Virus record (IMG/VR): IMGVR_UViG_3300025601_000007
Reading direction: 5' to 3' (one strand)
Source of the DNA: a virus
Lineage: Duplodnaviria > Caudoviricetes
DNA length: 64,000 nt
Shown here one piece after another: positions 3,544-50,599 of this stretch. The position numbers and the translations under genes were made by a program. Each line of letters opens with the position of its first letter. Positions within the stretch are counted from its first letter, which is position 1. The notes under the pieces were generated by a model, which saw nothing but the letters and a program-made list of their open reading frames with translations, was not told the DNA's origin and did no database searches.

Positions 3544-4206
3544 TTACCCCTCGATGATGTAGCTTTCGCCACCTAATCGCGCTCCAATAATGTTCTCGAT
3601 TTGAACGGTGCGAAACATAAACTCTAACTTTTGAAACTCTTCAAGGTTTGCTATGGCGTTTGCTTTCGTTCGTAATTCGTTAGCAAGTTCGGTGTTTCCT
3701 TCGTTTTCGGCTATTGCCGATTGCTTTAATGCGTGGTTGAACATGGAATTTTGTGCGGCTTTTTTGTCGTTTTGCGTCAATCCAGAATTGGTTATGTAGT
3801 CAGCGTTCCAAACATCTTTACGTTCAACGGGCTGACCGTTGCTAAACAATTGCGTTTGCGGCTTGCTGTGTGCCTCGGATACAAAGCAAAGGTATTGAAT
3901 ATCAGGATTTTTATCTTTGTGGACAATGCAACGATTTTTGTCGTTTGCGTCATACGAACGCCCCGTCATTTTATTTGGTGTCCAATCGAAATTTAACCCC
4001 TTCTCAGTTAAGATACGGTCGATTTTAGCTTGATAAATGCTATTAAGCGTTGCTACGGTATTTACCGTTTTTTGAAGTGCTTTCTTCTTGTTAATAGTTC
4101 GTGACTTGCTTTCGTCTACGTGATATGTTAAGCCCGAAAAAGTTGCGCCTTTTTGCGATTTCATCATTTCGATGAATTGTGCTTTAGTGATTTTTTTTGC
4201 TTCCAT
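3544..4206 (-). CDS. conserved jumbo-phage hypothetical protein, copy 2
   Basis: Identical protein to 2162..2824. Confidence 0.9.
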   Translation of the reverse strand: MEAKKITKAQFIEMMKSQKGATFSGLTYHVDESKSRTINKKKALQKTVNTVATLNSIYQAKIDRILTEKGLNFDWTPNKMTGRSYDANDKNRCIVHKDKNPDIQYLCFVSEAHSKPQTQLFSNGQPVERKDVWNADYITNSGLTQNDKKAAQNSMFNHALKQSAIAENEGNTELANELRTKANAIANLEEFQKLEFMFRTVQIENIIGARLGGESYIIEG

Positions 4207-8520: not shown

Positions 8521-8550
8521 GTATCTTTGAGTTATAAATTTAAAAACACT

Positions 8551-9822
8551 ATGGCTTCTTTAAACCCATTAACCCAGATAAACTTAAAAAACCTTCCAGG
8601 GAATCCTAAAAAAGCGATTCAAATCTCTTTGAATGCAGGATTTAAAGAGGTCGATGTGGACACAGACGAGGTCAAACACAGGAGTATCAGGCTGTTAACG
8701 GGGAAGCAGATTCTCCCTCAGCACTGGGACAAGAAGGGCAAGTGTCCATCCTTAGAGTATTGTAAAGAGTTTGGGAACGAATTAAGTGATTTCATAAAGG
8801 AGTTAGAAACACAAATGGTTAATGCTTATTGGCAAGTTAAGTCTGAGCACTACAAAACCACACCTGAACTAGTCGTGAGTAGATACAGGAGGCTTATAGG
8901 GGATGACAAAAGCGGAAAACCATTAAATGGGATGGTGTTGTTCATTCAAAAGCACATTGAGACGTCAGATTTGGCCGATACGACGAAAGCGGGTTATGTA
9001 GTAGTTTTTAATAGATTAAAAGAGTTTGAAAAAACCAGAGAGAAGAAATTATACTGGGAAAAATACACATATGATGTATTTTGCGATTTTTTTGACTGGC
9101 TCGCGAATAATTTCAATTTATCCAACAACACCTTATGGAGTCATGAAAAAGCGATGATTCGTTTTAGGAACGTAGCAGACTCTAAGGGGTTATTGGTTGA
9201 TAAATCAAAGTGGAGTCGTTTAATTCGTTATCAGCAGGAGAAGAAGGAGTATTTGAGTTGGAAACAGCTAAAAGTGTTAATTGATTACCAGCCTAAGACG
9301 AAGAGATTAAAGAACGCGAAGAGCGCATTATTGATTATGGCTTTCACAGGTATTAGAATTGGCGACCTTGACAATTTTTTCAACAACATCAAGAAAGGCG
9401 ATAATTATCGATACGCCAATTTCAAGACAAACAAATTACCGCACAACGAAGTTTACATTCCGATACTGGCTCCTATTGTGGAAATTATAGATTCACCAAT
9501 AAGAGTAACAAGGAATGCTGCTTTGACTGGCAGTATAAAAGATTTAGGAAAAGAGTTGGGGTATGATAATATATCAGCTCACACTGGAAGGAGGAGTTTT
9601 ATAACAAACTTAGTTCCTCTGGTACAGGAAAACATATTGAGAAAAATATGTGGTTTTTCGTGTTCTTCTTCTATTCACATTTATGACCAGCTACCTCTGG
9701 ATAGAGTCGCAGATATGTTCCATAAACATATTCAAGCAGCGCCTTTAACAAAAACTGAAGGTATTAAATTAATTGAAAAAGAAAAATGGTACAAAAGGAT
9801 TTTAAAAAAATTCATTCCTTGA
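8551..9822 (+). CDS. tyrosine recombinase / integrase (Bacteroidetes arm-binding + SAM-like + catalytic type)
   Basis: FTGIRIGDL (R), SAHTGRRSF (HxxR), HIYDQ (Y); N-terminal TG..I....WD arm-domain pattern; TATCTTTG host -7 box at 8522. Confidence 0.88.
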   Translation: MASLNPLTQINLKNLPGNPKKAIQISLNAGFKEVDVDTDEVKHRSIRLLTGKQILPQHWDKKGKCPSLEYCKEFGNELSDFIKELETQMVNAYWQVKSEHYKTTPELVVSRYRRLIGDDKSGKPLNGMVLFIQKHIETSDLADTTKAGYVVVFNRLKEFEKTREKKLYWEKYTYDVFCDFFDWLANNFNLSNNTLWSHEKAMIRFRNVADSKGLLVDKSKWSRLIRYQQEKKEYLSWKQLKVLIDYQPKTKRLKNAKSALLIMAFTGIRIGDLDNFFNNIKKGDNYRYANFKTNKLPHNEVYIPILAPIVEIIDSPIRVTRNAALTGSIKDLGKELGYDNISAHTGRRSFITNLVPLVQENILRKICGFSCSSSIHIYDQLPLDRVADMFHKHIQAAPLTKTEGIKLIEKEKWYKRILKKFIP

Positions 9823-47479: not shown

Positions 47480-47541
47480 ACCAGCTCGCTGTATATAATT
47501 AATGGCTAAAAAGCCACTAACCATATACAATTGTTGTGTGT
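47480..47541. repeat. attC-like site 1
   Basis: accagc-tcgc-tgtatat...atataca-att-gttgtgt. Confidence 0.65.
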
Positions 47542-47544
47542 AAT

Positions 47545-47832
47545 TTAATCTAAGTCTTCGCCCATTCTACAAAGTATATCTTTTAAATCCCATAAAACTA
47601 AATTGCACTTGTTCCATTGGCTAAATGTTTTGTCGTAATCATTCATAAGGTTCTTGCTCTTATACAAGTCTAAGTTTTCGCTCAATTTAGCTTTAAGGGT
47701 TTCTTCCTTTTTAATAAGTTCGTGAATAAAACTACGCCCAACATTGTATAAATACAATACTCGCTCTAGTGCCTCTTCACTACCTATTTCTAATCTTTGG
47801 TGTTGGTCTTTTATATTATCTATTTCTGTCAT
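47545..47832 (-). CDS. cassette hypothetical protein; first ~30 codons lie inside attC-like site 2
   Basis: ORF spans the GTT crossover at 47740-47742. Confidence 0.7.
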   Translation of the reverse strand: MTEIDNIKDQHQRLEIGSEEALERVLYLYNVGRSFIHELIKKEETLKAKLSENLDLYKSKNLMNDYDKTFSQWNKCNLVLWDLKDILCRMGEDLD

Positions 47833-47877
47833 TGTCGTACTGTCATTGTCGTACTGTTTTTATACTTACCGTTACCT
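47736..47877. repeat. attC-like site 2 (long, 142 bp)
   Basis: gcccaac-att-gtataa...ttatac-ttacc-gttacct; contains a 14-bp tandem duplication. Confidence 0.7.
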
Positions 47878-48127
47878 ACAATGGCTGATACTTTAGTTTA
47901 ACCTTATGTTTCGCCAAGTAATCGCATCTACAAACAGCAAGTGTTATATCATCATAGGCACTATCACAATCAGCGTGCGTAACGCTTGGAACCCATACGT
48001 GATAGTTTGGTTTTTGTTTAGTTCCTTCATTACTTACATAATAGCCATTTACATTATGTAATATTCCAAGCTTTACTTCTTCTTCTTCAGTTCCATTTGG
48101 CTCGTATTTATTTTTTATTTCAGTCAT
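47876..48127 (-). CDS. cassette hypothetical protein
   Basis: Stop codon overlaps the R box. Confidence 0.75.
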   Translation of the reverse strand: MTEIKNKYEPNGTEEEEVKLGILHNVNGYYVSNEGTKQKPNYHVWVPSVTHADCDSAYDDITLAVCRCDYLAKHKVKLKYQPL

Positions 48128-48162
48128 TTATCAAAGTTTTTAGTTTATAAAATCGCCACAGT

Positions 48163-48225
48163 AGGTAACAATGTATAAAATTAACCTACGGTCGCTATCG
48201 CTTAATCTTATACTAAACGTTATGC
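48163..48225. repeat. attC-like site 3
   Basis: aggtaac-aat-gtataa...ttatac-taaac-gttatgc. Confidence 0.8.
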
Positions 48226-48310
48226 TCCATGCCTTAGTTCAGTTCTTCGATTTAACATTTGTAATGAAAAACAAAAAGAATTTCGCCAACGCAAAACAAA
48301 GATAATAAAA

Positions 48311-48799
48311 TTATTTCAAATTAATACTATATTTTTGAATATTTTTACTTATATAATCTTTTGCTGATTGGTATTCGTTAATATCATATTCAAAACTTTC
48401 TTCAGATGCAAACTCTTTACCTGCATAATTATCTATCAAATATTTAGAGTTTGTTATGTCCCAATCAATAACTGGATTTATATCATAAAAATCTTCATAT
48501 AAATCTTTAAGTTTTCTAACACCTCTTGCATCAATTATAATATTATGGTTATTTGGATGATAGCAAAAGGCATGAACAAAATTGAAATTATATTCAGCAT
48601 CTTCATCAACATCTTCAAATTCATCGTTAATTACCGCTATTTGATATTGTGGAAATATTTCATTCAACGCAACACAAAATGGAATACATTCACCACTCAT
48701 CCATTGTTCAATATCATTTTCATTTATTGTGTGATTTTCATTCACAAACTGCTTAAAGTTCTTAACTTTATCAATTATTTTACGCATATCTTCACTCAT
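48311..48799 (-). CDS. cassette protein with papain/transglutaminase-like C-H-D pattern and capsid-targeting-like N-terminus
   Basis: GECIPFCVAL, HAFC, IIDARG; KNFKQFVNE; ATATTTAT upstream. Confidence 0.65.
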   Translation of the reverse strand: MSEDMRKIIDKVKNFKQFVNENHTINENDIEQWMSGECIPFCVALNEIFPQYQIAVINDEFEDVDEDAEYNFNFVHAFCYHPNNHNIIIDARGVRKLKDLYEDFYDINPVIDWDITNSKYLIDNYAGKEFASEESFEYDINEYQSAKDYISKNIQKYSINLK

Positions 48800-48907: not shown

Positions 48908-49001
48908 GCATAACAAGGTGTATAAGAAAGTTTGCTATCAGCATTTGTGGTAATTTGATAGTTTATCTAAGCAAACCTTCTCATACACCCAGCCGTTATG
49001 T
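48908..49001. repeat. attC-like site 4
   Basis: gcataac-aag-gtgtataag..gtttgc...gcaaac..ctcatacac-ccagcc-gttatgt. Confidence 0.85.
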
Positions 49002-49008
49002 GTAAGTG

Positions 49009-49449
49009 TTACATTAGTGATTCCAAATAACCTTTTTCTATAATATTTTCCAAACCATTAAATTCTAAATTAGTATCAATTTTAAAAACATTACCATTAG
49101 ATGGTTCAGAATAATAATCAGTATAACCTTCACCAACCACAATAACATCATTAATTAAAGTACTATTTAATAATGAATCAAAAACTCTATGATAACCATC
49201 AACTAAAAACAATAAATTATTATCAGTTCTCCAAACATTTAAAGGTTCTTTATTACTATGTGATTTTTTACCATCAATAAAATTATTAAAAACCCCCATT
49301 AAACTTCTTTTACTCAATATTAATTCATTTATGTTAATCTTTAATAAATCATAATATTCGTCACTTTCTTCATCATAATATTTATTCTCATTCAAGAACT
49401 TACCAAAGTTCTTAACCTTATTTATTTGTTCTCTCATTTCTTTACTCAT
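49009..49449 (-). CDS. cassette protein with ParB-like (DGYHR) motif and capsid-targeting-like N-terminus
   Basis: LFLVDGYHR; KNFGKFLNE. Confidence 0.7.
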   Translation of the reverse strand: MSKEMREQINKVKNFGKFLNENKYYDEESDEYYDLLKININELILSKRSLMGVFNNFIDGKKSHSNKEPLNVWRTDNNLLFLVDGYHRVFDSLLNSTLINDVIVVGEGYTDYYSEPSNGNVFKIDTNLEFNGLENIIEKGYLESLM

Positions 49450-49482
49450 AACATTTCTTTATATATACATTCCGCTGTGTGT
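49444..49482. repeat. collapsed attC-like site 5
   Basis: actcataac...gctgtgtgt with a very short arm; the ATG of 49009..49449 sits in the R box. Confidence 0.4.
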
Positions 49483-49486
49483 AATA

Positions 49487-49880: not shown

Positions 49881-50384
49881 TTAGGTTCTCCACAATTGGA
49901 GTGTTTTTAGTTCATATGCTACAATTCTTCTAACAATTGCATCAAATGTTTTTTTACTGTATTTACCGTCAGGTAAATCACTACCTCTATTCCAGTCTTC
50001 ACCAACTCTGTTTTTTCTAGTTGATGCAATACAGCCTAGGTATCCACTACTTTTATCTGTTGGTTTATATCCAGAAATTGAGTAATAGTGGTCGTTTGTA
50101 TGTAATCTGCAAATAAACTTGTTTTTTCCTGCCTCTTTAGTGTCAAGGAAAATTAATGCTTGCGAGTCAACATTTCCATATCGCACAAGTTCTTTTAACC
50201 ATAAGGCAAACTCAGGAGCAATATCAATAAGTTCTTCGTACTTAATCAATGTTGAATTGTTTTTCTCACTCAACCTTCTTTTTAATTCTTGGTTGTATTC
50301 TTCATTTGTTTCTACTCTTTCCACTTGTGGATGAGCATCTGTTTTTTCGGGGGCATTTTTGCCCGACTTAACATCTTCTTTCAT
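49881..50384 (-). CDS. cassette hypothetical protein
   Basis: 167-aa ORF between sites 6 and 7. Confidence 0.8.
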   Translation of the reverse strand: MKEDVKSGKNAPEKTDAHPQVERVETNEEYNQELKRRLSEKNNSTLIKYEELIDIAPEFALWLKELVRYGNVDSQALIFLDTKEAGKNKFICRLHTNDHYYSISGYKPTDKSSGYLGCIASTRKNRVGEDWNRGSDLPDGKYSKKTFDAIVRRIVAYELKTLQLWRT

Positions 50385-50482
50385 CTTATTATTAATTTAT
50401 TTTTACCCACCCTTCTTTTTATTTTTTAGTGCTTCGTGCTTCGTGCTTCGTACTAGCGTTGGTGGGTCATTAATCCGCCAGT

Positions 50483-50541
50483 AGTTAACACTGTGTAAAT
50501 TGCATAGCGAAAAGCTACGCACCTTATACAAACCGTTATAT
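50483..50541. repeat. attC-like site 7
   Basis: agttaac-act-gtgtaa-attgcatagc..gctacgcacc-ttatac-aaacc-gttatat. Confidence 0.8.
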
Positions 50542-50599
50542 GCAATGCTACGTTTCTGCTTCGTATTAAGTTCTGTGTAAAAACCTTTTAAAAATTTCA

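Follow-up and report, generated by a model that had tools for sequence, protein, structure and literature searches.

Locus and site anatomy

The stretch of DNA analyzed here (the window) is 64,000 nucleotides long and comes from a virus of the Caudoviricetes (Duplodnaviria; IMG/VR record IMGVR_UViG_3300025601_000007). The subject is an attC-like site on its minus strand at 47734-47879 (site 2 of an array of sites numbered 1 to 6) and the open reading frame (ORF) 47545-47832, which starts inside the loop of this site. The frame begins at the ATG 47830-47832 and reads through the second arm (V-L-Y-L-Y) and the conserved GTT triplet (Val31), just as a first-pass annotation of this DNA had described. 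In gene sense the site is read as an R box ending in AAC, a spacer of 4-7 nt, a 15-nt L arm and the loop, followed by the complement of the L arm, a spacer of 2-4 nt and finally an R box that opens with GTT; read in frame, the second arm and this R box give V-L-Y-L-Y-N-V-G-R. Below, the residues up to the junction valine are called the leader and those after it the body. The features of the locus are listed here, with sequences in gene sense unless stated otherwise.

47734-47879, minus strand: site 2, attC-like site with a long loop, enclosing the start of ORF 47545-47832
47871-47879, minus strand: 5' R-box half of site 2, GTAGGTAAC; inverted-repeat partner of 48161-48169 (9/9)
47866-47870, minus strand: first spacer, GGTAA, 5 nt, unpaired
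47851-47865, minus strand: first L arm, GTATAAAAACAGTAC, 15 nt; pairs 14/15 with 47746-47760
47761-47850, minus strand: loop, 90 nt, with the ATG 47830-47832 and codons 1-24 of the ORF
47826-47853, minus strand: 14-bp unit in two tandem copies (plus-strand unit CTGTCATTGTCGTA), inside the loop of site 2
47746-47760, minus strand: second L arm, GTATTGTATTTATAC, codons 25-29 (V-L-Y-L-Y)
47743-47745, minus strand: second spacer, AAT, 3 nt, codon N30
47734-47742, minus strand: 3' R-box half, GTTGGGCGT, codons V31-G32-R33; the GTT is Val31
47545-47832, minus strand: ORF of 95 residues, assigned to phrog_31081, starting in the loop of site 2
47533-47544, minus strand: closing R box of the body, ATTACACACAAC, directly 3' of the stop codon; a diverged copy of the ATTACGCCCAAC of relatives

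The upstream gene (47876-48127) has its stop codon within the 5' R-box half of site 2, and the cassette border AA|C lies there too. The 14-bp duplication copies the region of the ATG and results in a 5-codon mini-ORF just 5' of the real start. It is missing from the other nine loci that share the leader and body of the window and were compared with it (class A, below), so that among these loci the window alone has it.

Pairing of the arms

The encoded protein was used to gather 39 related loci (given as L numbers), which are mostly metagenome contigs. Of 27 non-redundant junctions, 16 have a partner for the 15-mer in front of the GTT, with pairing at 14 or all 15 of its positions, and this partner always lies right after AAC-G-N4-5, 94-170 nt upstream. 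Five distinct arm families were found (GTATAAAAACAGTAC, GTATAAGAATAGTTG, GGTTAAGGTTAGTGC, GTTTAAGGAAAGTGC and GTACAACCGAAGTTG), each with its own complement and 14-15 of 15 pairs. Shuffled arms reached 15 pairs in 0 of 540 trials and 14 pairs in 9 of 540. The mismatches that do occur are G.T on the gene-sense strand. The arm codons have a synonymous divergence of 0.18, against values of 0.39 for the leader and 0.46 for the body. In all long-loop sites with a long ORF (19/19) the GTT is in frame as valine.

A strict scan of 95 kb of related loci found 45 sites in gene sense and 3 in antisense, while resampled sequence gave 1-9 (~6 expected by chance). The spacers are asymmetric, with 4-7 nt on one side and 2-4 nt on the other, and the lengths of the sites cluster in three classes (~55, 122 and 190-220 nt). 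No extrahelical bases of the attC kind were identified. The pairing in site 2 is accepted because of the covariation of the arms and not because of folding energy. On these comparative grounds the observation that site 2 is an attC-like site is confirmed.

Sites of 122-123 nt with GTGTATGA-type arms form a discrete class in the related loci, with no ORF start in their loop of conserved length. Examples are L004 4553-4675, L006 4545-4666, L010 2127-2248, L016 3564-3686 and L018 2098-2220.

Cassette ends and the mobile unit

Segments between two sites are bracketed by an inverted repeat that starts with GTT and ends with AAC. Perfect 10-nt repeats of the form GTTx7...x7'AAC (separated by 120-700 nt and having three or more G/C in x7) number 18, compared to a mean of 0.6 for the other 63 trinucleotides. 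In the window, gene 47876-48127 lies between GTTACCTAC and GTAGGTAAC, and gene 48311-48799 between GTTATGCTC and GAGCATAAC. The stop codon of the focal ORF is followed in most relatives by ATTACGCCCAAC, the reverse complement of the V31-G-R codons, and the end pairs of the focal gene covary (GTTGGGCGT/ACGCCCAAC, GTTGGGGTTA/TAACCCCAAC and GTTGGCAG/CTGCCAAC). Judged from these repeats, the bracketing is the signature of integron cassettes, whose two ends would form the R box in the excised circle.

Ten loci carry the leader of the window (leader A) on the same body and make up class A. Their flanks are random-like, with 28% identity in the upstream 100 nt and 32% in the downstream 100 nt, while the first L arm has a mean identity of 91% over the ten. 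The stretch of homology opens with the TAAC of the arm located 5' of the ATG and closes with the AAC that follows the stop codon. The spacer GCTAA of near-identical relatives is linked to the leader and not to the upstream gene. Since leader and body move jointly between unrelated flanks in ten loci, site 2 belongs to the cassette of its own gene. As far as the limits of homology tell, these loci show a usual mobile unit that has an AA|C border at either end and contains the interior of the site, the start codon, the leader and the body. Because this unit carries the leader and the body together, an ordinary cassette move would leave the protein unchanged. The earlier proposal that the site belongs to the upstream cassette, so that the neighbor sets the N-terminus, does not agree with the movement of leader A.

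Two simple versions of the border were rejected. A crossover at the Val codon as the sole border is ruled out by the joint movement of leader and body in the class-A loci. A crossover at the 5' arm alone is ruled out as the whole story, as leader B is found on four bodies.

A cultured phage offers an outside comparison. Clusters of attC sites lacking integron integrases (CALINs) have been described in virulent phages, including the Polaribacter phage P12002L, in which two such sites were detected by attC covariance models (IntegronFinder, HattCI) and attC2 was recombined with IntI1 via its bottom strand (Qi et al. 2023, PMC9892861). The product gp60 of this phage is a homologue of the focal gene, with a site of the same kind. 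The top strand of attC2 is antisense to the genes in the record; therefore, the recombinogenic bottom strand is the gene-sense strand, cut at the 5' arm, in line with the AA|C border of the present loci. The support gained from this is modest, given that IntI1 is foreign to the system and the attC2 oligonucleotide of Qi et al. differs from the record by 2 bases, in the R' box.

In the same genome (L030, 4223-4290), the HNH endonuclease gene gp59 lies directly downstream of gp60 and has AAC-GTGATAC-GTTTATGAATAGTGC in front of it, which is again an arm of this type. The gene may be another cassette with its start in a site.

Combinations of leaders and bodies

The first-pass annotation had proposed that homologues of the body would have unrelated N-termini that switch at the V codon. 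This expectation was borne out. Among 61 clusters of homologues the body is conserved from G32 on, and the part in front of it falls into ~18 unrelated classes that converge on the valine. Leader A is present in 27 of these clusters and leader B in 10. Most leader classes end in L-x-L-x-x-V just before the conserved G(R/V/C)SF, and the leaders differ in both sequence and length, beyond mere divergence.

Some leaders are also found on more than one body. Leader B (46 residues) is joined right after the valine to four bodies: the focal body, a SQQRELL-type body, a VGQSEQL-type body and a short tail that is an empty module only. A search of 1.8 billion representatives with leader B gave no further body. 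The leader MRTEQK... precedes the focal body at one locus and, at another, a cysteine-rich body unrelated to it, and the SQQRELL body has at least three leaders.

Identity was measured in bins around the GTT for pairs of loci. When the leader is the same and the bodies differ, identity is 100% up to position -19 or -31, ~80% in the arm and ~30% from +3 on; different leaders on the same body give the mirror image. The switch in DNA identity therefore lies between -18 and +3 of the GTT. The break between L034 and L037 fits the spacer or the GTT, with arm pairing retained, while in L031, L035 and L036 the junctions are inside the arm and arm pairing is lost. The arm-internal junctions look like homologous recombination over a conserved stretch of 45 nt (...EKDRxxQLxLxxV) and not like a fixed cut. 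The proposal that recombination at G|TT splices leaders onto bodies is thus right about a switch at or near the Val codon, but a clean cut at G|TT does not describe every junction. The pattern of identity shows a second class of exchange that parts leaders from bodies at or just before the in-frame GTT, in many combinations. Leader swapping stands beside the whole-cassette moves as a less frequent and less precise class of event.

Two further arrangements were seen among the related loci. In L035 (224-439 and 360-420), leader B is followed by an "empty" body of ~55 nt between GTTGTAAAA and TTTTTACAAC, and the ORF continues into the next site and stops there; a leader module can thus occur with no real body behind it. 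In L002 and L014 (~1220-1330), unrelated upstream sequence takes the place of the first 9-10 codons of the focal gene. This junction is inside the loop, at neither triplet, and is a third kind of rearrangement.

The protein

An open frame is kept in every leader class, and codons 1-24 of leader A have a ratio of nonsynonymous to synonymous polymorphism (pN/pS) of 0.44 in the class-A loci, compared to 0.17 for the body. Given the open frames and this ratio, translation from the ATG in the loop is probable. AlphaFold models of a leader-A protein and a leader-B protein are confident, with scores (predicted local distance difference test, pLDDT) of 96 and 89. In both models a short helix is followed by a long one and then by a third, and the junction valine is within the long helix; in the window ORF, Val31 is in the middle of the predicted long helix 18-59. 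In the models the leader is integral to the fold and is not a detachable tag. A search of PDB folds with the protein model gave no match with E < 0.78. A role of the leaders as capsid-targeting tags was also considered and rejected, as the models put the leader in the helical fold and the (L/I)-x-E motif is inconsistent across leaders.

Interpretation and alternatives

The reading preferred here, with a probability of about 0.7, is that site 2 is a folded-strand attC-type site in an array for which no integrase was found, and that the cassette gene itself has come to occupy the loop with its 5' end. Whole-cassette moves would then be site-specific events in which the folded gene-sense strand recombines, the 5' arm being the border. 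The leader swaps would come either from a less frequent reaction on the opposite strand, with the cut at G|TT, or from homologous recombination across the conserved arm. A bolder extension is that the in-frame GTT is a working point of protein shuffling, where a recombinase acting on either strand joins leader modules (the start signals plus one and a half helices) to body modules. This extension is tentative and less likely than not. If it is true, phages of Bacteroidota would make new small proteins combinatorially, by a site-specific analogue of exon shuffling in viruses of prokaryotes.

Several observations weigh against the preferred reading. As free single-stranded DNA, site 2 folds no better than shuffled sequence (z 0.2-0.4), and the hairpin of site 3 is likewise not predicted by minimum free energy (MFE; z about 0). 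A loop of 90-190 nt is long for an attC site. The G.T pairs of the sense strand are also compatible with an RNA structure. The arm-internal junctions in L031, L035 and L036, with their loss of arm pairing, are those expected of homologous recombination and not of a fixed cut. The attC2 oligonucleotide does not fully match the record, and the enzyme used on it was a foreign one. Contig linkage over repeated sites could be mis-assembled, though the junction k-mers must exist in the reads. There is also no integron integrase among the 21 large ORFs of the window that were scanned. One ORF (8527-9822, 431 residues) has the motifs GIRIGD, HTGRRSF and HIY (R, H-x-x-R and Y), but its match to PF00589 (E 0.0037) is below the curated cut-off and it is 38 kb from the array. 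PF00589 has no match in L004/G003 (CheckV 100% complete) or in P12002L, which is deposited as a complete genome.

The ORF 8527-9822 is a possible divergent tyrosine recombinase by its motifs and is the sole such ORF in the window. A search for tyrosine recombinases in five carrier records gave a single match; the phage concerned has the gene with neither of the arms, and so the search points to no association between recombinase and site. No recombinase could be tied to the sites. Since no integrase was found, the array fits a CALIN-type cluster at best.

The strongest of the alternatives, though still unlikely, involves no site-specific recombination at all. The hairpins would be RNA or regulatory elements (processing, stability or translational control) or elements like the promoter early stem-loops (PeSLs), and the shuffling would be due to homologous recombination only. 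PeSLs of T4-type phages are promoter-terminator motifs that are thought to act by homologous recombination, and shuffling mediated by them is documented (Arbiol et al. 2010, PMC2839356; Comeau et al. 2014, PMC4122927). As at the present locus, they are short conserved stem-loops between small accessory genes that mark the borders of swapped genes, in the hyperplastic regions of T4-like phages. The wobbles on the sense strand, which are compatible with G.U, the hybrid sites with junctions inside the arm and the lack of a recombinase in the carrier genomes searched all agree with this explanation. However, it leaves the covarying repeats that bracket the bodies (18 versus ~0.6 expected) without a cause. 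The borders fall on 3-4 nt of AAC with unrelated sequence on one side, which is too short for homologous recombination. The sites are also found in an unrelated phage type, the siphovirus P12002L, one of whose attC sites recombined with IntI1 (PMC9892861). Unlike PeSLs, the present sites have AAC/GTT cores, ends that are complementary along the chain of cassettes and enclosed coding sequence. A consensus scan for sigma-70 promoters and intrinsic terminators found none at the sites and no excess over shuffles; the readings as simple terminators or sigma-70 PeSLs were dropped for this reason.

The literal model of the first-pass annotation is improbable. It takes the site as part of the upstream cassette, with a regular crossover at G|TT of Val31, so that each insertion gives the body a new leader. 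The usual attC convention (gene, then R''...R') can be quoted for it, as R' would be GTTGGGC, an exact fit to GTTRRRY. The ~18 leader classes on the body are also what it predicts, and two pairs of loci (L034/L036 and L031/L035) share the upstream gene and leader B while their bodies differ. Against this, leader A occurs with the body in ten loci whose upstream genes are unrelated, and the homology starts from the AAC of the other arm. The site downstream of the body, which by this model would be the body's own, differs in every locus. The recombinogenic strand of attC2 in P12002L is moreover the gene-sense strand.

That the second arm is a chance match, made of ordinary codons of a conserved helix (LYLYNVG) behind a fast-diverging and dispensable N-terminus, is highly improbable: the MFE fold is not significant and the arm does code for a hydrophobic stretch in a confidently predicted helix, but the compensatory changes in five arm families, the constraint on synonymous sites of the arm, the identical leaders on unrelated bodies and leaders that are unrelated in both sequence and length all speak against it.

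Relation to known systems

The preferred reading places the array close to attC sites and CALINs. The shared features are R and L boxes with AAC/GTT, unpaired spacers, a variable loop, a better-folding strand (sites 1 and 4) and the lack of an integrase nearby. Cassette ends are complementary to each other and not to the neighbor, with covarying end repeats of 9-12 nt, and the border AA|C is G|TT on the other strand. The differences are as clear. Here the folding (bottom) strand is the one that carries the gene, and the site lies at the 5' end of this gene. The loop of 90-190 nt takes in the start codon along with 24-45 codons, and the frame in which the second arm and R box are read is fixed, whereas the classical site is non-coding and downstream of the ORF. 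Leader and body modules occur in many combinations. Unlike in integrons, no IntI, attI or Pc was seen.

A single-stranded hairpin as recombination site is also known from Xer systems. In folded sites such as attP of the CTX phage, a hairpin with an unpaired center mimics the two-arm core site. The arms of the present sites differ from those of Xer sites, as they vary freely and stay complementary. In the pdif arrays of Acinetobacter plasmids, half-sites of alternating orientation bound swappable modules. The alternating orientation of half-sites is the sole resemblance of the present array to them. A dif or pdif site spans 28 bp, with two 11-bp arms around a 6-bp center that match the XerC/XerD consensus; no such 11-6-11 consensus is apparent in the present sites, though no consensus comparison was run.

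The first-pass annotation held that such shuffling is not expected of classical cassettes. A gene start inside the loop does set these sites apart, but related precedents exist: ORF-11, ORF-17 and ORF-18 lie in attI1, and the N-termini of aac(6')-Ib derive from upstream sequence or from fused cassettes (reviewed in PMC8876359). In both, the recombination site or a neighboring cassette supplies the initiation region or the first residues, so that the N-terminus depends on context. Those cases are sporadic fusions or coupling ORFs at attI, or followed the loss of an attC, whereas here the start lies inside an intact attC-like loop, the frame over the GTT is fixed and the layout recurs in ~20 sites. 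Gene starts inside sites are not mentioned in PMC9892861, and literature searches gave no description of leaders encoded in loops or of shuffling at an in-frame junction. The attC clusters of phages are already published, while the gene start in the loop and the in-frame junction were not found in the literature.

Integron cassettes are understood as whole promoterless genes, each followed by a site that is non-coding. In the present case the gene starts within the site, and one of the two conserved triplets is an in-frame codon at which the fronts and backs of proteins occur in many combinations. If a recombinase uses this junction, phages would have a dedicated route to new proteins from parts, beyond the swapping of genes. 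There are also consequences for annotation. Cassette finders that assume a non-coding attC will miss such sites or truncate the genes, and homology searches would report a false "N-terminal divergence". Since P12002L is in culture and has the same gene and type of site, the idea is testable.

Other sites and features of the window

The window is AT-rich (38% GC). The genes around site 2 are on the minus strand and include those for thymidylate synthase, a MazG-like protein, NAD-salvage proteins, a CCA-type enzyme and a PARG-like protein. The paired motif of the array, read on the plus strand as AAC-N3-GT(A/G)TAA ... TTATAC-N5-GTTA, is confined in the window to 47.4-50.6 kb. Its right-arm pattern has 9 matches in the window, compared to 2.2 expected, and 7 of the 9 fall in this interval as convergent pairs. 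Sites 1 to 4 and site 6 are defined by these pairs. The remaining sites are:

47490-47544, minus strand: site 1, the next site, with a short-loop hairpin at 47490-47529
48161-48228, minus strand: site 3, short, with no gene start in its loop
48906-49003, minus strand: site 4, strong hairpin
49444-49486, minus strand: "site 5" of the first-pass annotation, degenerate, AGC-GGAAT-GTATATATA...GTT-ATG
50481-50543, minus strand: site 6, short, at the far end of the array

The outer 9-mers of site 3 are complementary to the far ends of both neighboring cassettes and not to one another. The MFE of the six sites was computed for both strands and compared with shuffles. Site 1 has an MFE of -9.7 kcal/mol on the minus strand and -8.0 on the plus strand (z -3.2, minus), and site 4 has -19.5 kcal/mol on the minus strand and -13.9 on the plus strand (z -5.75). 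Sites 2, 3 and 6 fold no better than shuffles on either strand. Rfam at the gathering threshold has no match in the window, and megablast of 45-52 kb against phage records gave no match.

Site 5 had been described as carrying an ATG in its R box. The GTT-ATG is literally there (plus-strand CATAAC, 49447-49452), but the ATG is 3' of the GTT. As a site it is degenerate: GTTATGAGT matches the far end of its cassette at 8 of 9 positions (plus strand, 48995-49003), but the 5' triplet is AGC and not AAC. No hairpin was found for it (z +0.4 and +0.5 for the two strands, MFE against shuffles). Because the ATG of gene 49009-49449 directly follows the GTT, the start codon stays with the body, and an exchange at this site would be expected to alter only the sequence upstream of the start codon.

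The R box TTACACA(C/T)A(A/G)C is nearly the same at the ends of three window cassettes (47533-47544, 48995-49008 and 49475-49486), which suggests local homogenization of cassette ends in this genome. The heptamer GTGCTTC is repeated three times in tandem at 50429-50449, in the intergenic DNA that separates site 6 from gene 49881-50384. Outside of the array, the two minus-strand ORFs at 2162-2824 and 3544-4206 are both 220 residues long, lie 1.4 kb apart and each have an antisense ORF of 87 residues; they are probably a duplicated gene.

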